This document shows, piece by piece, positions 2,655-29,362 of a stretch of 30,995 bases of DNA (positions within the stretch are counted from its first letter, which is position 1; every line of letters begins with the position of its first letter). Origin of the DNA: Verrucomicrobiia bacterium. Its GTDB lineage: Bacteria; Verrucomicrobiota; Verrucomicrobiia; Limisphaerales; DATENK01. The translations under genes and the position numbers were made by a program. The DNA lies in assembly GCA_035275085.1 (NCBI GenBank), contig DATENK010000718.1, positions 1 through 30,995 on the forward strand, in the 5' to 3' direction. The notes beneath the pieces were generated by a model. The model saw nothing but the letters and a program-made list of their open reading frames with translations, ran no database searches and was not told the DNA's origin.

Positions 2655-4772
2655 TCATGAAAACGCCACTTTGGTGGTCGCCGCTTCCGGATCCCAATTT
2701 CGCAGCGGCTTGCTGCTGACGGTGGCGATTTCCTTGATGGAAAGCTGGTTCCCGCGGGCCTTGGCCCCTTTGACCCCGAGCTCGGAAGGTTTGCAGGTTT
2801 GTTGGTAAATTTTCTGGTGCGGCGCGGGCTTGTACCGAATGTACAACTCGGCCGACGTGTCCGGCTCGAACAACAGAATGCGCGATTTTTCCGGGATGCA
2901 GAAATACTCCTTGTTCATAATTGTCCCACCGAAAGTGAATCGCTTCAGGTAATTGGCGTCGCGATTTGTATAAACGAGCGTGAACACGCGTTCGCGTTCG
3001 GGGAGTCCGCAATAGACCAAATCCGGGCCCACGAACAATTTCTCGGGCAATTCAGTCACGCGATACCGCCCGTCTTTCGATACCAAAATCAACTTATCGA
3101 AACGCGAACAATCGATCTTGAATTCTTCGCCTGACACTTTGTGCCCCACGTAACCGGACTCGCGGTCATACGCCACCTTGAAAGTTTTGAACGCGACCTC
3201 TTTCGCTTCCACTTCATCGAATCGGCTCGATTTGGTGAGACGCGGATATAGAGGACCGTAGGTCTCAAGCAAGCGTTCCAGATGGTTAATGACGTACTTC
3301 GTGAGGTTCTTCAGGTTCTTGCGCGTCTCCGCCAGGTCCCCCTTTGTCTTCTCCATTTCCTCGCGGTGCTTGTTGATATCGAACAGCGATATGCGACGAA
3401 TCCTGACCGTCAGCAGTCGATCGACATCCGCATCAATCAATTCGCGCAGCAACTCTTTCTTGAAGGGCTTGAAACCTTCGTGCACTGCCGCGATGACCGA
3501 TTCATTGGTGCGGCATTGCTCGATCTTCTTGTAAATGCGCTCTTCGATGAAGATGCGTTCCAATGTGCGGAAATGCAGTTCGTCCTGGAGCTTCTTTTCC
3601 TTGAGCTCGAGTTCACGCTTGAGCAACGCGACAAGCTGCTCCGTGTTTTCCTTCAGCACTTCGGAGACAGTCATCTCCACCGGTCGGTTATTTTTGATGA
3701 GAATGATCCGGCTCGCGATTGTGACTTCGCAATCCGTGAACGCGTACAGCGCGTCCACCAGTTGCTCCGCTTCCACGCCTGGCGGCGCCTTTACCTCGAT
3801 CTCCACGTCCTCCGACGTGAAATCGTTCACGCTGCGCACCTTGATCTTTCCTTTCCGCGCGGCATCTTCAATCGAAGCCATCAACGAATCCGTGGTGGTC
3901 GTTGGCGGAATCTCTTTAATCGCGACGGTGAAGCCGTCCTTGATCTTGATTTTCGCACGCATCCGAATCGTGCCCTTGCCGTCGGCATAACCGCGCGCGT
4001 CCATTAGCCCGCCGGTGAAGAAATCGGGCAGCACCTTGAATGGCTCCTTCTTCAGGATGTTGATTTGCGCCTGAAGCAACTCAGGGAAATTGTGCGGAAG
4101 AATTTTCGCCGACAAGCCCACCGCGATCCCTTCCGTCCCAAGCATTAAGAGCAACGGTAATTTGCTCGGCAGCGTCACCGGCTCCTTCTTGCTGCCATCG
4201 TATGTCGGAATGAACTCGGTGATTTCGTCGTTGAACAGCTCGTTGCGCGCGAGATCAGTCAGCCGGCATTCGATGTATCGCGGCGCAGCCGGCACATCGC
4301 CCGTGTAAATATTACCGAAGTTCCCTTGTCCTTCGATCAGGTAACGCTTGTTCGCGAGCACCACCAGGGCATCGCCAATCGATGCATCCCCATGCGGATG
4401 ATACTTCATCGATTCGCCGACGACGTTCGCCACTTTGATGAACCGACCCTCGTCCATCGTATGCAAGGCCCACAGGATGCGTCGCTGCACCGGCTTAAGC
4501 CCGTCCTCCAGCGTGGGGATCGCGCGGTCCCGAATTACGTACGACGCATATTCCAAAAAGCTGCGGTTGACCCGCCCATGCAACGGCAACTCAATTCTGT
4601 TTGGCTTGAATGGCTTGCGCTCCGCTTCCGTTGGCACCGCCTCGGCCTGCACATGCATCTCGCCATTGCCGTTCTTTCCGGGCTTACCGGGTTTTGCCGG
4701 CTTGGCAGCCTCCGGCTTGGCGGGTTCGATCGGGGGTTGAGCTTTTGCTGATTCCTTTTTCTTTGCGCTCAT
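2655..4772 (-). CDS. parC: DNA topoisomerase IV subunit A (type IIA, short-CTD ParC type)
   Basis: DGLKPVQRRIL, YHPHGDASI, AAPRYIE with the catalytic Tyr, and GIAVG. I see no GyrA-box, and the CTD is short. Confidence 0.88.
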   Translation of the reverse strand: MSAKKKESAKAQPPIEPAKPEAAKPAKPGKPGKNGNGEMHVQAEAVPTEAERKPFKPNRIELPLHGRVNRSFLEYASYVIRDRAIPTLEDGLKPVQRRILWALHTMDEGRFIKVANVVGESMKYHPHGDASIGDALVVLANKRYLIEGQGNFGNIYTGDVPAAPRYIECRLTDLARNELFNDEITEFIPTYDGSKKEPVTLPSKLPLLLMLGTEGIAVGLSAKILPHNFPELLQAQINILKKEPFKVLPDFFTGGLMDARGYADGKGTIRMRAKIKIKDGFTVAIKEIPPTTTTDSLMASIEDAARKGKIKVRSVNDFTSEDVEIEVKAPPGVEAEQLVDALYAFTDCEVTIASRIILIKNNRPVEMTVSEVLKENTEQLVALLKRELELKEKKLQDELHFRTLERIFIEERIYKKIEQCRTNESVIAAVHEGFKPFKKELLRELIDADVDRLLTVRIRRISLFDINKHREEMEKTKGDLAETRKNLKNLTKYVINHLERLLETYGPLYPRLTKSSRFDEVEAKEVAFKTFKVAYDRESGYVGHKVSGEEFKIDCSRFDKLILVSKDGRYRVTELPEKLFVGPDLVYCGLPERERVFTLVYTNRDANYLKRFTFGGTIMNKEYFCIPEKSRILLFEPDTSAELYIRYKPAPHQKIYQQTCKPSELGVKGAKARGNQLSIKEIATVSSKPLRNWDPEAATTKVAFS

Positions 4773-7204: not shown

Positions 7205-7278
7205 CCGTTGACTTAGGCTTCGTTTCGGCGCAGAGGCTTCCTGGGTGGTCCCAACTGGATGACCGCCCCCCCCAGGGG

Positions 7279-7381
7279 GCGTCAGAAGGCGTCAGGGTGA
7301 CAGGTGGCCTGTAAACATTGGTCAAAAGTGGTGTTTTAGAAGTGACAGGTGGGCGACAGGTACGACCTTGTACCCGACAGG
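7279..7381. repeat. Array of short direct repeats (GYGWCAGG-like) flanking an AT-richer spacer
   Basis: GCGTCAG 7279, GCGTCAGG 7289, GTGACAGG 7297, GTGACAGG 7342, GCGACAGG 7353, CCGACAGG 7374. GTGACAGGTGG is an exact 11-mer at 7297 and 7342. Confidence 0.7.
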
Positions 7382-7389
7382 AGCCGCCT

Positions 7390-21505: not shown

Positions 21506-22018
21506 ATGGATGGAGAAACGCTGAGCCAGGCTACACCGCCGGTGTTGTATCAAGCCTTGGATCCACGTGTTGTAAAGCTCTGGAAGATTCGCTCTCTGAT
21601 CGCTAGCGGTGTGCTGCTATCCCTGGCCGGGGTTGGCGTTTTGATTCTCGGTTTTGGCCGGGTCGCGCCGTGGCCGGGATTGGTCGTTGCGTGGCTCACG
21701 CTGGGCGGGTTGCGTGCATACTTTTTCTTTTGGCATCAGCAGCGAGTGTATCGCAATTGGGGCTACCGGCTGGATGGCAAGGTGCTCGAAACGCGGCATG
21801 GGATTTGGTGGCGTCAATTGCAATTGCTCCCCCTGCCGCGGCTTCAGCATGTAGACCTTCATAGCGGGCCAATCGAGCGCTCGCTCGGCCTCGCTTCTCT
21901 TCTTCTGCACACCGCAGGCACCCATGAGGCAACGATTGTGATTCCAGGCCTAGATGCGAACGAAGCGGTGCGGTTGCGGGACCATTTGGTAATGGTCGGA
22001 GGCGACGATGGCGTCTGA
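21506..22018 (+). CDS. YdbS-like membrane protein with a bacterial PH domain
   Basis: Two TM helices, then YRNWGYRL, RHGIWWR, LPRLQHVDLHSGPIERSLGLASL, TAG and IPGL. Alternative start ATG 21476. Confidence 0.88.
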   Translation: MDGETLSQATPPVLYQALDPRVVKLWKIRSLIASGVLLSLAGVGVLILGFGRVAPWPGLVVAWLTLGGLRAYFFFWHQQRVYRNWGYRLDGKVLETRHGIWWRQLQLLPLPRLQHVDLHSGPIERSLGLASLLLHTAGTHEATIVIPGLDANEAVRLRDHLVMVGGDDGV

Positions 22019-23558
22019 GCCGCCGCCGGTGCCGCCTCCCATTCCGGAGCAAGTCACGCCGGGGTTCACAGACGGATTGCTGCTCGAAGGCCGACTGCAT
22101 CCGCTCACATTGTTGTTTTCGGTTTGGCACACGGTCCGCGGGATTCTCATTCCTTTGATTGTGATTGTGTTTTTCGGACGTAAACGGGCCGAAGACCTGT
22201 ATTTCCTGTTCGCGATCGTGTTTCTGGCGTTGCCGATCAGTTTCGCCATTGTTCGCTATTTTACATTTACCTACCGCATCCAGAATGGGGAATTGATCAC
22301 GCACCATGGCGTGCTCGGGAAAACGCAGCGCATCATTCCCCTGAGCCGTGTTCAGGACATCCGGGTCGAACAAAGCGTGCTACACCGTCTGTTCCGCATG
22401 GCGGACGTGCATGTTGAAACCGCTGGCGGCAAAGAGCCAGAAGCATCGTTGTCGGTGTTGTCGCTCGCCGAGGCCGAGCGGTTGCGGGCCGCGGTATTTG
22501 ATGTGAAACGCATAGCCTCTGCGGCGACGGAAGCGCCACCGTCACGCGAGATCATTCGCAAGCTGAGCGTGCGCGAGTTGGTGTTTGCGGGATTAACATC
22601 CAACCAGATGGCATCCGCGATTGCGGTGCTGCTGGTGGTCTGGAATTTCCTCGACGACTTCATTTCACGAGAGGCGTACGAACGATGGGTCCTGCGGACC
22701 ACACAAGCGGCGACCGAATGGGTGACGCACGTCGGCCACAAAGCGTGGATCGGTTTCCTGCTATTGGCCGGGGCGGTAATTCTGGTCGGCATGGTGTTTT
22801 CCATTGTCGGCTCGGTGGTGATGTTTTATGGGTTCACCCTGGCACGCAGCGGGGAGGATTTGCATCGCAGCTACGGGCTATTTACACGGCGCTGGAGCAG
22901 CCTGCCTCGGCGTCGGATTCAAGTCTTGAAGGTTGAAGAAACCATTTTGCGCCGGCTTTTCGGGCTAGCGACGTTGCGCGCCGACACAGCGGCGAGCACC
23001 GGCCAGGAACACCATCAGAACAGGGGTGGGCGTGATATGCTACTGCCGATTGTTCCGCGGCGCGAACTGGAAAGCTTATTGCCGAATTTCTTTCCGGATC
23101 TGGACAACGGGGGCGATTGGCGGCAAGTCGCGCGGGTTGCGATTCGGCGGGGGACGCTGAAAGGATCAGTGGCCTGCGCGATTCTCGCGGGGATCTCCTA
23201 TTGGGCACAGAGGGAATGGCTCGCGCTCTGGCCGCTTCTGCTTGTGCCTATTGTATTTCTGCTGAATGTAATGAGCTTCCGGTATTTGGGATACGTGCAC
23301 GGCGCGAAATACTTCCGCACACGCCGGGGGTGGCTGCGGCGTTCGACGCATATCGTGCCAATCCGCAATGCGCAAGTGGTACTGGTGCGGCAAACCCCGT
23401 TCGATCGCAGATTTAACGTGGCTTCCGTGCTTGTCGATACCGCAGGCAAAGCGCATACCGGGGGACTCCCGCGGATCGGGAATGTGCCGCATCCGGAAGC
23501 GCTGGAACTGGCGCGAGCGCTGGCGCGGCAGGCAGCGGAGACACGGTTTCGGATCTAG
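22008..23558 (+). CDS. YdbT-like membrane protein with three bacterial PH domains
   Basis: Overlaps the ydbS-like gene by 11 nt. RLHPLT start motif, and repeated units RVQDIRVEQSVLHRLF...VETAG, RRIQVLKVEETILRRLFGLATL..DTA and NAQVVLVRQTPFDRRFNVASV.VDTAG. Confidence 0.88.
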   Translation: MASEPPPVPPPIPEQVTPGFTDGLLLEGRLHPLTLLFSVWHTVRGILIPLIVIVFFGRKRAEDLYFLFAIVFLALPISFAIVRYFTFTYRIQNGELITHHGVLGKTQRIIPLSRVQDIRVEQSVLHRLFRMADVHVETAGGKEPEASLSVLSLAEAERLRAAVFDVKRIASAATEAPPSREIIRKLSVRELVFAGLTSNQMASAIAVLLVVWNFLDDFISREAYERWVLRTTQAATEWVTHVGHKAWIGFLLLAGAVILVGMVFSIVGSVVMFYGFTLARSGEDLHRSYGLFTRRWSSLPRRRIQVLKVEETILRRLFGLATLRADTAASTGQEHHQNRGGRDMLLPIVPRRELESLLPNFFPDLDNGGDWRQVARVAIRRGTLKGSVACAILAGISYWAQREWLALWPLLLVPIVFLLNVMSFRYLGYVHGAKYFRTRRGWLRRSTHIVPIRNAQVVLVRQTPFDRRFNVASVLVDTAGKAHTGGLPRIGNVPHPEALELARALARQAAETRFRI

Positions 23559-23583
23559 GCTCTGCAGGACACCCCCGAAATAA

Positions 23584-23674
23584 CCGTTACACCGTTACAT
23601 TAACGATAAAGCCTAAGGAATTGGGAAAAGTATCCGTTACAACAACTGTTACATGTAACGGTTAAACCGTTACA
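23584..23674. repeat. CCGTTACA octamer array (5 direct copies, 1 inverted) flanking an AT-rich spacer
   Basis: CCGTTACA at 23584, 23592, 23634 and 23667, CTGTTACA at 23646, inverted TGTAACGG at 23654. Perfect inverted repeat TGTAACGGTT-A-AACCGTTACA (23654-23674). Confidence 0.85.
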
Positions 23675-25597
23675 TCACTGCGTTTCCCCCAAATTCGGAC
23701 GCGGCATCTTCTCGCCCATCAGCAGATAATGCCACATCGCGGTAATTTGCTTTTCAGCATCCCCGTCGAGGATTTCCGTCAACGGGCTGCGACCGTCTTC
23801 ATCGAAGTAGACTGGCATTTTGGTTTGGGGATCGATTGCCAGAGGATTACGCACCCAGCGGCGATAATATTGCGGCAAGAGCCGCTCCGCGGACCAAGCC
23901 AAATTAACGCCTTCGCTGTCAAAAACATCCGTCGCCTGGACGGGCCCGACCCCGTGGCAAGACACGCATGAGAACCCGCCCTCTTTGCCAACGAGCTTTT
24001 GGCCAAGCTTCGCAAGTTCAGAATTGCTCTTTTCTGTCGACGTCTGCGGCGGATAACCGTGCAATGCCGACATTCCAGTGGCCAGCGGCTGCCCCCACTG
24101 CGCAAACGCCGGCATGCGCGCAAACAGCCAGGGTTCACCGCGAGGATGCGTTTCGGCGCGGGGTTTGTAAGGAATTGCTCCGGAGATAAAGGAACCCATC
24201 CACTCGGGTCGCAACTTGCCTCCGAGGATATCCACGGGCGGAAAACCTTCCTGTTGGCCGTGGCACGCGCGACAATTCAACACCCGGATTTGACGTTCAG
24301 CAAACTCAGCCGGTATGTGGCGCGCCAAGGAGGATCGCTCGGTCCGGCCAAAGCCGACAAGGGCAATGCGTTCACGATCGGCAAAATGGAATTGTGGAGC
24401 GGCAGGAGCACCGACCACGCAACCCTTCACCCAGTCGGTTCCGAGTTTCGGCGCTTTAAATTTGTTTTCGAGCTTGAGGGTGTGGCAATTAAGGCAGCCA
24501 CGCGATTGGACGAGATCGCGGCCAGCATCTATGAGCGGCTGGTCCGGAGGCAGCGGCTCGGTGGGGACGCCTCGCCCGACCATTAATTCGTTCGCGAGCG
24601 TGTCGGCCTCTTTTTGACTCAACTTGAAATTTGGCATGCGGGTAAAAGGGAAGAAAGCGTCAGGGGCGAGCAAATATGCGGCGAGTTGCCCGGGCGGAAA
24701 TTTTTCGGCGGCGTGGCTAAGTGAGATTCCAGTTTCGCCGTGGCACGACCCGCACAGCAGAGCGTCGTACAATGTCTTGCCCTCAGGAGGTGGGGGACTG
24801 TCTTTGCGAGCTGGCCGGATGGCGGCCTCTCCGCCCTTTAAGGTACCAAGAAAGGCAGCCATTGCTTTTGCTTCCTCCGGACTTTTTGCAAGTTTCGGCA
24901 TGTGAGCAGAGGGACGCTCCGCGTGCGGATCAAGAATCCAGCGTTCCATCCAAGCCGTATTGCGGCGCGTGCCGATTGCTTCCAAGGATGGGGCGTCCAA
25001 GCTTTGCAAGAGAGAATCGAGCTTCTCCTGGTGACACTTTGCGCAGCGATATTCGATGAATAGTTCGCGGCCGAGCTCGAGGCGGTAATCAGGCAGGGCA
25101 TGGCTCAATACGGTCGGAGGGATGGGACTGGTATTGGTTCCCTTCTCGGTCCAAAGCAGTCGAAGATAAGCATGCCCCGATTGAGGACTCGTGTAAGCAG
25201 CCTTAATTTTATTATCGCCCTTACTCAAGCTGACAGGTTTGGTCAGCGCCGAAATGCTATCGGTCAGGGACGATTCAAGCACGGCACGCTCGTTGATTTC
25301 CAGTTTTAGCGCCCCGTTTAGTTCGGCTTGGAAAAAAAATTCGCCGCGCAAGTCGGCGTGGATGTTGCCTTCCCAGACGCCCGTGAATGGACCCCGCGGA
25401 ACGAAAGGCGTTGGCGCCTCGCAGGTCGCGGAATAGAAGGCCACATTGCTCAGCGATGTCGTGTGGGTTTTTCCCCCTGCGGAAAAGGTGACAGCCAGAC
25501 CAATAACGTTTGAAGCGGCGCGCGAAGATAGGGCGCAGCTCAGCATTATGATAAGGATTGCGATCCTGACCATGAGCGGGAACGTACCACGCATCAC
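23675..25597 (-). CDS. Secreted multihaem c-type cytochrome (5 CxxCH) with an N-terminal PA14-like domain
   Basis: Signal peptide, PA14-like FTGVWEGNI...FFFQAELNGALKLEIN, haem motifs CAKCH, CGSCH, CLNCH, CRACH and CVSCH, with downstream HMP / RMP / RMP / KMP Met ligands. Start GTG 25597 or ATG 25594. Confidence 0.85.
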   Translation of the reverse strand: MMRGTFPLMVRIAILIIMLSCALSSRAASNVIGLAVTFSAGGKTHTTSLSNVAFYSATCEAPTPFVPRGPFTGVWEGNIHADLRGEFFFQAELNGALKLEINERAVLESSLTDSISALTKPVSLSKGDNKIKAAYTSPQSGHAYLRLLWTEKGTNTSPIPPTVLSHALPDYRLELGRELFIEYRCAKCHQEKLDSLLQSLDAPSLEAIGTRRNTAWMERWILDPHAERPSAHMPKLAKSPEEAKAMAAFLGTLKGGEAAIRPARKDSPPPPEGKTLYDALLCGSCHGETGISLSHAAEKFPPGQLAAYLLAPDAFFPFTRMPNFKLSQKEADTLANELMVGRGVPTEPLPPDQPLIDAGRDLVQSRGCLNCHTLKLENKFKAPKLGTDWVKGCVVGAPAAPQFHFADRERIALVGFGRTERSSLARHIPAEFAERQIRVLNCRACHGQQEGFPPVDILGGKLRPEWMGSFISGAIPYKPRAETHPRGEPWLFARMPAFAQWGQPLATGMSALHGYPPQTSTEKSNSELAKLGQKLVGKEGGFSCVSCHGVGPVQATDVFDSEGVNLAWSAERLLPQYYRRWVRNPLAIDPQTKMPVYFDEDGRSPLTEILDGDAEKQITAMWHYLLMGEKMPRPNLGETQ

Positions 25598-29306: not shown

Positions 29307-29362
29307 CTGCTTTTGGACTGCGGTGTCGCCGCTTCGCTCTGCCACCGCAGTCCAAAACAGTT
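29305..29362. repeat. REP-like element, copy 2, forming a long hairpin and a probable bidirectional terminator
   Basis: Perfect 15-bp inverted repeat TTTTGGACTGCGGTG (29311-29325) / CACCGCAGTCCAAAA (29343-29357), extended by AACTG / CAGTT. It fills the gap between convergent genes. Confidence 0.85.

Follow-up and report, generated by a model that had tools for sequence, protein, structure and literature searches.

A non-coding element family with a fixed plan and swapped words, inserted between facing genes in a Verrucomicrobiia bacterium

The six-word module at 23584-23674 of the window (the whole stretch of 30,995 nucleotides that was analysed) is inserted DNA, located between the stop codons of two facing genes. 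It belongs to a lineage-specific, non-coding family with a fixed plan, in which the word is swapped between sub-families and is alike within a copy. Orthologous copies are conserved far above silent codon positions. Judging from the sequence, we would explain the module as a non-autonomous inserted element that may act as a helically phased, putative protein-docking site on double-stranded DNA, a reading in which our confidence is about evenly divided.

RESULTS

Layout of the module

A preliminary description of this DNA, made from its letters, had placed a module of six words at 23584-23674. Reading the sequence directly gave the same layout, with five exact copies of CCGTTACA and one CTGTTACA. 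Only 0.43 exact copies of CCGTTACA are expected in the window, and five were reached in 0 of 100 shuffles. The flanking genes and the parts of the inserted DNA are the following:

22008..23558, plus strand: left flanking gene with three bPH_2 domains (ORF list; Pfam PF03703, E 4e-50)
23559..23572, plus strand: variable left part of the inserted DNA, without family-wide conservation, resembling the orthologous copy L063
23573..23583, plus strand: left terminal motif of type B, YCCGRAAWAA, here CCCCGAAATAA, conserved in alignments of 36 and 21 copies
23584-23591 and 23592-23599, plus strand: words W1 and W2, CCGTTACA twice, an abutting pair in all aligned copies
23600..23633, plus strand: spacer of 34 nt with the near-palindrome TTAACGATAA, the motif CTAAGGAA and an A-tract
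23634..23641, plus strand: word W3, CCGTTACA, followed by the linker acaa
23646..23653, plus strand: word W4, CTGTTACA, with one mismatch to CCGTTACA (T at position 2)
23654..23661, minus strand: word W5', the sole inverted copy, TGTAACGG, abutting W4 with an ACA/TGT junction and followed by the linker ttaaa
23667..23674, plus strand: word W6, CCGTTACA, the right end of the element, adjoining the cytochrome stop codon
23675..25597, minus strand: right flanking gene for a multihaem c-type cytochrome (stop codon 23675-23677)

The bPH_2 gene on the plus strand ends with a TAG at 23556-23558 and the cytochrome gene ends at 23675 on the opposite strand. Thus the gap is convergent and 116 bp long, and the module abuts the cytochrome stop as had been described. 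The orthologue of the bPH_2 gene adjoins the cytochrome gene in relatives too, with cytochrome orthologues of 66-77% identity. In the relative L063, 22 kb are syntenic and hold housekeeping and regulatory genes only.

Both palindromes that had been named are exact (GTTACATGTAAC at 23648-23659 and TGTAACGGTT-A-AACCGTTACA at 23654-23674). The spacer at 23600-23633 is AT-richer than its surroundings, also in agreement with the preliminary description, with a GC content of about 0.40-0.45 compared to 0.55-0.70 in the flanks. The T at position 2 of W4 is the variant found in most words of the orthologous copies L063 and L053. Conservation across the family ends past the ACA of W6. No sigma-70-like promoter was found at the module, and a scan of 23400-23850 gave no hairpin followed by a T run, consistent with the earlier statement that the module is not a terminator. 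A canonical bidirectional terminator-type hairpin is located elsewhere in the window, at 29307-29362. In the source sample, a contig spanning 22761-24337 contains the element, and no joint skipping the element was found. No RNA run was found to contain the window; among DNA runs only one did, a rhizosphere metagenome.

Type B and type A families

The module had been called an orphan, which it is not, since 35 further homologous copies are present in the genome. Searching the MAG (84% complete, 816 contigs) with nhmmer gave 36 copies of an intergenic element of 100-115 bp, termed type B, the window module among them. The matches are 97-106 bp long in 29 of the 36 cases and 89-115 bp in the others. 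Every type B copy follows the same plan, which consists of the left motif, the W1-W2 pair, a spacer of ~34 nt with A/T-tracts, W3, W4, the inverted W5' and W6. The words are 8-10 nt long and at least nine different words occur between sub-families. All of them end in ACA, which is invariant at each word slot in an alignment of 21 copies. Within one copy the words are homogeneous: in the variable 5 nt, words of one element differ by 1.17 on average and words of different elements by 2.67 (reached in 0 of 2000 permutations). Within sub-families, words and linkers are near-invariant and the spacer drifts.

A sister family, type A, has 54 copies in the MAG, which gives about 90 together with type B. 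One of these is the second module with a different word that had been noticed in the window:

7266..7382, plus strand: type A copy with a GC palindrome, the words GGCGTCAG/GTGACAGG/CGACAGG and a spacer with AAACA...TGTTT

This copy occupies a convergent gap between an FG-GAP/ASPIC gene and a GyrB/ParE-like gene. Type A words are of several kinds, and the element starts with a G run and ends with CAGG. A comparison with shuffled DNA, which the preliminary description had proposed as a refuting check, gave 68 word-cluster loci genome-wide compared to 0 in three shuffled genomes and thus did not refute it. Ordinary hairpin MITEs with TTAA flanks are also present in the MAG.

Terminal inverted repeats (TIRs) were not found; type B has YCCGRAAWAA at the left end and, at the right end, a direct word that closes with ACA. 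A target-site duplication (TSD) was not found either, as the longest string shared by the flanks was 5.04 compared to 4.87 shuffled for type B and 4.81 compared to 4.90 for type A. Insertion beside pre-existing hairpins, with the left end pairing with the upstream flank, was considered for 35 copies and rejected (mean z -0.31 against shuffled flanks).

Empty and filled alleles in relatives

The cytochrome/bPH gap was compared between the window and its relatives, here related metagenome contigs. In a tree of the cytochrome, the window groups with L063 and L053 in one clade (99/98), and type B is present in all three. Three lineages have an empty gap, with 2 bp (L064), 0 bp (P0005) and 4 bp (L065) between the stops, and the whole 116-bp gap is missing from the empty alleles L064 and L065. 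Because only 0-4 bp separate the facing stops in these related lineages, the element represents inserted DNA. In L072/L054, an element of type A fills the same gap and has a new word, CCGGTAAG; in L071 the gap is filled by other DNA. Both kinds of allele were also found at the gmd locus: L075 and L077 have an 8-bp overlap of gmd with fcl, and an orthologous type B copy is located directly past the gmd stop in G000 and L074. Additionally, L064 carries two type B copies at places that are empty in the window. A comparison of empty and filled alleles had been suggested in the preliminary description, together with the possibility of a non-autonomous mobile module, and the alleles of the cytochrome/bPH gap support that possibility.

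The tandem word was not found in the genomes of 40 relatives, all of the same order, and a covariance model of the element found no match in 150 same-order genomes. The spacer pattern was not found in a collection of species genomes. Plasmid and phage collections contained no counterpart of the element, and the matches to the tandem word in viral contigs were chance partial matches and not elements.

These searches bear on another suggestion made for the module, a stranded satellite, PICI or plasmid origin in which iterons surround an AT-rich melting region and the initiator gene has been lost. SaPI origins have short repeats around an AT-rich stretch, with specificity set by the repeat sequence. 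Type B likewise has short direct repeats in two sets, one on each side of an AT-rich stretch, as in SaPI-type and plasmid iteron origins. This arrangement around an AT-rich or promoter spacer is common to iteron origins and centromeres (SaPI/PICI ori, R1 parC, plasmid iterons), and their repeat sequence also varies between related systems, where it matches the binding protein of each. However, an iteron site occurs once, on a mobile replicon, beside the gene for the protein that binds it. Type A and type B are instead present in dozens of chromosomal copies (36 of type B and 54 of type A), every one of them in a short gap flanked by housekeeping genes; no gene for a binding protein accompanies them, and no plasmid, phage or viral counterpart was found. 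Neither a rep or other initiator gene nor a primase, helicase or integrase gene adjoins any copy; a check for neighbours of this sort had been proposed in the preliminary description. Also, the insert is small, at about 115 bp, and the gap it occupies measures 0-4 bp in relatives. We regard an origin as extremely improbable.

Conservation of resident copies

The copies of the window and L063 are 81% identical over 115 nt and the first 23 nt of their spacers are identical. Between the same two sequences, identity at third codon positions is 48-50% in both flanking genes. Overall, orthologous copies show 72-81% identity compared to about 50% at third codon positions. At the gmd locus, identity is 82% across the whole aligned gap, with a core that is higher by eye, compared to 61% at third positions. 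Four of the five other intergenic gaps that were compared are 55-69% identical, which is near the shuffled value of 60%; the fifth is 81% identical, but just 42 nt long.

The 23 spacer nucleotides that are identical in the window and L063 differ from those of paralogues in the same genome, and the variable left parts of the two copies are alike. Such locus-specific features, common to the window and L063 within one host clade, argue for one old insertion. Alternatively, the conservation could be due to gene conversion, or to closely related source copies that were inserted later and independently. In their words, the window and L063/L053 differ by C/T at a CpG, and these differences could reflect parallel mutation bias without selection.

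Assuming such a history, type A and type B might be selfish, decaying MITE-like elements that are functionless at rest, with words that serve as transposase sites during transposition only and a conservation that stems from recent or repeated insertion or conversion. We consider this doubtful. Bacterial MITEs such as Correia/NEMIS of Neisseria and RUP of pneumococcus are similar to type A and type B in being dispersed, non-coding and about 100-150 bp long, with sub-families and bursts, and in being present or absent at orthologous sites and tolerated mainly at gene ends. Consistent with this, our elements have many copies and sub-families, a young type A burst of nine almost identical copies, presence and absence at orthologous gaps with at least three independent gains in one gap, and copies grouped beside each other, and their genome holds MITEs of the ordinary kind. 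Constraint on the source copies alone could explain invariant words and linkers next to a drifting spacer. On the other hand, and unlike MITEs, type A and type B have no TIRs, no TSDs and no related full-length insertion sequence that could be found, and neither an autonomous partner nor split halves were found in the 84%-complete MAG. The signs of one old insertion shared by the window and L063 also speak against this explanation, as does the high identity of their copies relative to silent sites, which the gmd locus repeats; such conservation of orthologous copies also sets the elements apart from MITEs.

Genomic placement and helical phasing

None of 89 copies is located within a gene. Convergent gaps, for which the preliminary description had proposed to look, hold 33 of the 65 copies with both neighbours called, compared to 18.8% of gaps (p about 7e-9). 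Clusters are found on seven contigs (C608, C677, C81, C409, C563, C132 and C515), and the copies are scattered among ordinary housekeeping genes, for example at ddl/ftsQ, at gmd and at a PTS EIIA gene. No recurrent neighbour gene family was found beside the 89 copies.

In these respects both families are similar to the REP/BIME/REPIN sequences of Enterobacteria and Pseudomonas (associated with RAYT), which are short and non-coding, number tens to hundreds of copies, are strictly extragenic, enriched past gene ends and in convergent gaps, and clustered, lack target duplications and form several sub-families per genome. Some REP/BIME are binding sites of host proteins. In contrast, REPs are imperfect palindromes in alternating orientation with a GTAG or CGTC tag, whereas type B contains a word of 8-10 nt five times directly and once inverted, with a helical period and a fixed spacer of ~34 nt. 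The type B palindrome is limited to W4/W5', and five of the six words are direct.

In a scan of periods from 7 to 14 bp, the word starts were best fitted by 10.3-10.4 bp for type B (R 0.75) and by 10.7-10.8 bp for type A (R 0.78). The abutting pair W1 and W2 has a spacing of 8-9 bp, which is less than one full helical turn.

From the periods and tracts in the sequence, one could also predict an element that acts by DNA shape in the manner of REP/BIME. The helically repeated word would sum bends and form a putatively curved or wrappable segment of ~100 bp for gyrase or a nucleoid protein, at the supercoils between convergent genes. In Escherichia coli, BIME-2 binds gyrase and BIME-1 binds IHF. 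The word itself would be unread, so that it may differ between copies and yet must match within one. The occurrence of 10.4-bp and 10.8-bp periods in two families with unrelated words fits this explanation, as do the A- or T-tracts of the spacers, which are found in either orientation, the location of half of the copies in convergent gaps and the failure to find a specific reader in the MAG. However, the ACA is invariant in all type B words, and the linkers and 23 spacer nucleotides are conserved base by base between orthologues, which makes reading of the sequence likelier than shape alone. Additionally, W1 and W2 are out of helical phase, and three relatives have no element at all in the same gap. 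On the whole, a pure shape element seems unlikely.

Pairing words and a possible role in RNA

Copies are located directly past stop codons, where they could act in the 3' UTR as a linear array of protein-binding motifs or as a switch between W4:W5' and W5':W6 hairpins, affecting termination or mRNA stability, or could form a small RNA gene. W5' is able to pair with W4 or alternatively with W6, and W4 and W5' covary across sub-families, with changes on both sides in 26 cells compared to 10.8 in shuffled data (0 of 500). The folding energy is slightly better than that of shuffled sequences on both strands (z about -2). On the minus strand all words begin with UGU and are 8-10 nt long, a start and a length that recall PUF-type recognition elements. 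A PUF-like RNA reader was rejected, as the PUF domain is absent from the genome.

Further observations argue against a function in RNA, which we consider very unlikely. RNAalifold found no consensus fold on either strand of 29 type B and 44 type A copies; the energies of 0 to -2.3 kcal/mol came from word pairing alone. Rfam gave no family match for the module, and a terminator-like hairpin with a T run is lacking. The orientation of copies in tandem gaps is unbiased relative to the flanking genes (12 compared to 7). One copy lies between ddl and ftsQ, within a cell-division cluster whose ddl-ftsQ region is normally passed by transcription. The inverted word is absent from type A, and a period of 10.4-10.8 bp has no meaning for RNA.

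Search for a reader protein or mobilising enzyme

The MAG yielded neither a protein that would read the elements nor an enzyme that would mobilise them. Its recombinase content comprises one rve gene and five tyrosine recombinases. The Resolvase family (PF00239) had 0 matches in the 84%-complete assembly, and the PD-(D/E)XK GxxExxY gene (PF13366) had 0 matches as well. An autonomous element sharing the ends of type A or type B was not found among the 816 contigs; repeated transposase genes are often missing from fragmented metagenome assemblies. Models of half-elements gave no convincing unpaired halves around a gene and six weak partial matches (E 0.02-5), all away from known copies.

The ends of IS607-family elements, which use the serine transposase TnpA, have no TIR or TSD, and short motifs over 60-75 bp bind multiple transposase dimers in about 10-bp steps (PMC6188088). 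Type B resembles these ends in having no TIR, no TSD and several short internal motifs. Unlike IS607, the element has no coding region, and both of its arms point in the same direction within about 100 bp. Mobilisation by an IS607-like serine enzyme was rejected because a Resolvase gene is absent from the 84%-complete MAG and type B lacks the terminal GG that is typical of IS607: it ends in ACA and a conserved GG is absent from its right flank. In RAYT systems the Y1 gene is flanked by the same repeats. The MAG contains two Y1_Tnp transposase genes, on contigs C792 (RAYT-like) and C481, and neither contig has a type A or type B copy. Hairpins of its own, without relation to the words, flank the former gene, and the latter has its own inverted ends. 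With the flanks of both genes unrelated, mobilisation by RAYT/Y1 was also rejected.

Two other candidates were discarded. A CsrA gene is present and type A words contain CAGGA, but a CsrA sponge cannot account for the module, because type B words have no GGA. The spacings do not suit an ECF-sigma promoter, and the suspected paralogues, with 70 members the largest paralogue family, turned out to be CheY-like receivers. No paralogue family was seen that would match the at least nine type B words and several type A words.

DISCUSSION

A possible docking platform

The preliminary description had also suggested a multi-site loading platform for a DNA-binding protein. The helical phasing, the neutrality of orientation and the absence of an RNA fold fit this suggestion; the binding protein itself was not found. 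Following the docking reading, which we prefer, the element would act as a platform on double-stranded DNA for an oligomeric, sequence-specific protein. It would make contact with five or six words that face roughly the same side of the helix, with a spacer between them that can bend, and each word sub-family would be paired with its own reader specificity. The reader might be the enzyme that formerly mobilised the element in trans, presumably one that can do without terminal inverted repeats and without target duplications. Where copies landed harmlessly, mostly between convergent stops, they would afterwards have been kept under constraint, and this retention may point to host use or to self-preservation. 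Against docking, many different reader specificities would be required for the at least nine words of type B and the several words of type A, and W1 and W2 are spaced by less than a full helical turn.

A bolder claim would be a so far undescribed class of cis-element, a six-slot phased scaffold with an interchangeable address word of 8-10 nt that is inserted precisely between stops without terminal repeats or duplication and is then selected. We put this forward as speculative and hold it to be doubtful. If it were true, the specificity of the reader would have to be reprogrammed with the word, for example in a guide-carrying or modular protein instead of a dozen paralogues, or else the function would depend solely on the periodic self-similarity of the DNA.

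Bacteria often carry REP, BIME and MITEs, and a reader or use is known for few of them. The elements described here combine three traits: a plan that outlasts word swaps, clean empty and filled alleles, and conservation above silent sites. They raise the testable question of what reads a helically phased array of identical yet interchangeable words. If the reader is the mobilising enzyme, its transposition would leave no inverted repeats and no duplications; if it is a host factor, the elements would represent a novel type of module at gene ends, from a phylum that has received little study. In annotation, iteron-like modules of Verrucomicrobiota should not be labelled as origins. Natural controls are already at hand in the sub-families with different words and in the relatives that are free of the insert.

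The word array belongs to a repeated element family

The module at 23584-23674 consists of word slots W1 to W6 (a word being a repeated unit of 8-10 nt), with W5' inverted. Direct reading of the window reproduced exactly the layout given in the preliminary description.

Features of the module and its neighbours, as read from the sequence
Ends at 23558, plus strand: three-domain bPH_2 gene
23584-23599, plus strand: two abutting CCGTTACA (W1, W2)
Between W2 and W3: spacer of 34 nt
23634-23641: CCGTTACA (W3)
23646-23653: CTGTTACA (W4)
23654-23661: inverted copy (W5')
23667-23674: last CCGTTACA (W6)
Ends at 23675, minus strand: multihaem cytochrome c gene

Exact copies of CCGTTACA occur five times in the window, against 0.43 expected. 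The spacer is indeed AT-rich, with a GC content of 0.40-0.45 compared to 0.55-0.70 in the surroundings, and the module fills a gap of 116 bp between the facing bPH_2 and cytochrome stop codons, which agrees with the convergent position originally reported. A scan for hairpins followed by a T-run was empty at the module, as expected from the earlier statement that it is not a terminator, and neither an Rfam family nor a promoter-like site was detected in this region.

The module had also been called an orphan, which does not hold. Profile searches of the MAG containing the window (816 contigs, 4.98 Mb, GC 57%, completeness 84%; the window is contig C718) recovered 36 copies of its family, termed type B, the module included, and 54 copies of a sister family, type A, to which 7266-7382 belongs. 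CCGTTACA itself clusters at three further loci, where the layout is the same and the spacer homologous. When any 8-mer present at least four times per 120 bp was counted, 68 loci were found in the MAG and none in three locally shuffled genomes, so the pattern exceeds that of shuffled DNA. Most type B copies are 100-104 bp long and follow a common plan.

Plan of type B elements, from left to right
Left motif: YCCGRAAWAA
W1 and W2: abutting
Spacer, about 34 nt: TTAWCGWTAAAG or TTTGCGGTTTT, then CTAAGGAA, then an A- or T-tract
W3, 3-4 nt, W4
Inverted W5', 3-5 nt, W6

In alignments of the copies, conservation on the right does not extend beyond the ACA of W6. At least nine words are used (CCGTTACA, CTGTTACA, CCGCTACA, CCGTCACA, CCGGCACA, AAGTTAACA, CTATGTACA, AAGGTAACA and GGGTTACA), all with ACA as the 3' end. 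At the five variable word bases, the mean difference was 1.17 within an element and 2.67 between elements at the same slot, a likeness that was reached in 0 of 2000 permutations. W4 and the inverted W5' change jointly. Among type A elements, nine nearly identical copies over about 130 bp carry the words GTGTCAAT/GTGTCAGG (C608:11444-11560, C149:2893-3009, C284:1790-1906, C468:2450-2566 and five more); about 12 nt in the middle of their spacer differ in almost every copy.

Genomic placement

By the simple, rough gene calls made for this analysis, none of 89 copies lies inside a gene. Both neighbours could be called for 65 copies, and 33 of these lie in convergent gaps (p about 7e-9), which account for 18.8% of gene pairs and for the same share of intergenic bases. 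Orientations in tandem gaps are near-equal (12 versus 7). Copies often adjoin one another (contigs C608, C677, C81, C409, C563, C132 and C515). Genes next to the copies are unremarkable, such as ddl/ftsQ, gmd, PTS EIIA and GFO/IDH/MocA oxidoreductases, and no protein family was found to recur near the copies. One type B copy with the word CTGTTACA (C123:21258-21359) sits between ddl and ftsQ, nearly touching both. Its location inside a cell-division gene cluster argues against a role as a strong terminator or roadblock.

Empty and filled alleles

Cytochrome orthologues of 66-77% identity were collected from metagenome and MAG assemblies, each relative being represented by a single contig. The orthologous cytochrome/bPH gap was found in four states. 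It is empty in L064, P0005 and L065, where 2, 0 and 4 bp, respectively, separate the stop codons (for P0005 from gene coordinates only). A type B element, placed and oriented as in the window, is present in L063 and L053. In L054 and L072, which represent one organism, the gap is filled exactly by a type A element whose word, CCGGTAAG, is new. The fourth state, in a 68%-identity relative, is 84 bp of unrelated DNA (L071:2661-2744); this further insert at the same place contains a long-range inverted repeat, CCGTAGC ... GCTACGG. The cytochrome tree groups the window with L063 and L053 (clade support 99/98) and places the empty alleles outside this clade. The simplest history starts from an empty gap, with type B inserted once in the common ancestor of these three and two or more additional gains having occurred independently in other lineages. 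In L064 the gap downstream of the cytochrome gene is empty, and two type B copies lie upstream of this gene; the words of both are also present in the MAG, and the word sub-families therefore predate the split of these organisms.

The gmd locus behaves like the cytochrome/bPH locus. An orthologous type B element directly follows the gmd stop codon in the MAG (C697) and in L074, an 8-bp overlap of gmd and fcl leaves no gap in L075 and L077, and L076 has different DNA after gmd. Further word arrays downstream of gmd in relatives (L074:11150-11300, L076:1500-1640) contain GACCAA five times at a spacing of about 9-10 nt, CGCGAAT three times and CGTTA(A/G) six times, words unlike those of types A and B.

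Constraint after insertion

Between the window and L063, the genes flanking the module share 77% and 87% protein identity and 50% and 48% identity at third codon positions. The element is 81% identical over 115 aligned bases, with the first 23 spacer bases unchanged; compared to L053, identity is 72-74%. Four of five other intergenic gaps align at 55-69%, close to the shuffled value of 60%, and the fifth, of only 42 nt, at 81%. Over the entire aligned gap of the gmd locus, identity is 82%, versus 61% at third codon positions, and identity of the element core, judged by eye, is above 82%. From these two loci we infer that resident copies are probably under selection.

Orthologous copies differ mainly in the variable left part, in the right third of the spacer, where a T-tract stands in place of the A-tract, and at word position 2, which is C in four words of the window and T in L063 and L053. 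Because this position is a CpG, parallel deamination could explain the change without selection, and it was not counted as proof of concerted evolution. The family-wide likeness of words within an element is the stronger evidence.

Mode of action and relation to known systems

When periods of 7-14 bp were scanned, the starts of direct words fitted best at 10.3-10.4 bp for type B, with a mean resultant of 0.75, and at 10.7-10.8 bp for type A, with one of 0.78; both match the helical repeat of DNA. With RNAalifold, neither strand yielded a common fold, whether for 29 type B or for 44 type A copies, and single sequences fold only about 2 standard deviations better than shuffles, because the words pair. 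That the element acts on double-stranded DNA is indicated by its helical period, by the absence of an orientation bias and of an RNA fold, and by the ddl/ftsQ copy. In the best reading, an oligomeric protein would contact several identical words on roughly one helix face, across a bendable spacer. A serious rival, by analogy with the proposal for gyrase-binding BIMEs, is that shape alone might provide the function, which would explain why any word suffices provided it is repeated. The putative protein reader could be either the enzyme that moved the element or a host factor. If it is the former, its mechanism must produce neither inverted repeats nor duplications: no target duplication or conserved flank was found at the copies, no terminal inverted repeats appear in the type B alignment, and no hairpin forms between left end and flank.

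Half-element profiles gave weak partial matches only and no convincing unpaired halves. In the 84% complete MAG, which is fragmented and of a kind of assembly that easily loses transposase genes, no Resolvase, PUF or PDDEXK_3 domain was found; its recombinase-type genes are one rve, five tyrosine recombinases and two Y1 transposases, both of the latter with flanking repeats unrelated to the element. Plasmid and phage records gave no match, and four viral contigs with the tandem word were judged not to be elements. Covariance model R1 had no hit in 150 same-order genomes, and the spacer pattern had none in the species-genome collection.

Ribbon-helix-helix proteins bind abutting direct or convergent repeats, which are among the closest known grammars. 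So are iteron origins and centromeres, and the multi-motif ends of IS607-family transposons (PMC6188088). The replication origin suggested in the preliminary description was rejected on the context tests of an origin. The copy number, placement and turnover of the element resemble those of REP/BIME and MITE repeats, but it has neither the palindromic units plus RAYT that define REP nor the TIR plus TSD that define MITEs. Broad literature searches found no description of its design, which is weak evidence of absence.

Other repeats

Intergenic DNA of the MAG is a mosaic of several repeat modules. A third kind of word array (C440:1045-1162, C549:4200-4299, C617:922-1032, C3:10189-10285, C517:320-440) has three to five direct AAGTTCCA, AAGCTCCA or AAGCACCA in one arm and inverted words in the other, and the whole array makes up an extended imperfect hairpin. 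These copies are mostly intergenic. Runs of 6-7 nt units like GATTAAG, GATTAGG or AGTAGGAG often precede type A elements (for example at C534:9252-9279, C22:3599-3626, C423:5009-5036, C687:3742-3769), and ACTGAACATCGAACATC-like units often lie 3' of them. The core of CsrA-binding motifs, CAGGA or AGGA, is present in most type A words and lacking from type B words; a CsrA homologue is encoded at C172:3423-3578.

A 150-aa Y1 (IS200/RAYT-like) transposase gene (C792:3752-4204) is flanked on both sides (3600-3750 and 4210-4330) by two GC-rich hairpins, CACCCCGCTTCAGCGGGGTG and GGAAACCGTTTCAACGGTTTCC, in inverted orientation, and is a separate REP/RAYT-like system. Ordinary-looking hairpin MITEs (C112:9678-9754, C215:11407-11485 and, in a relative, L063:5974-6038) have arms of three CACGGAG (CGCAGAG in L063) plus inverted words, with TTAA on both sides. 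The L063 copy fills the convergent gap between a sigma-54 activator and a response regulator gene. In the same gap of the window, a canonical bidirectional terminator-like hairpin, TTTTGGACTGCGGTG ... CACCGCAGTCCAAAA, is found at 29307-29362, and the organism thus uses ordinary hairpin terminators.
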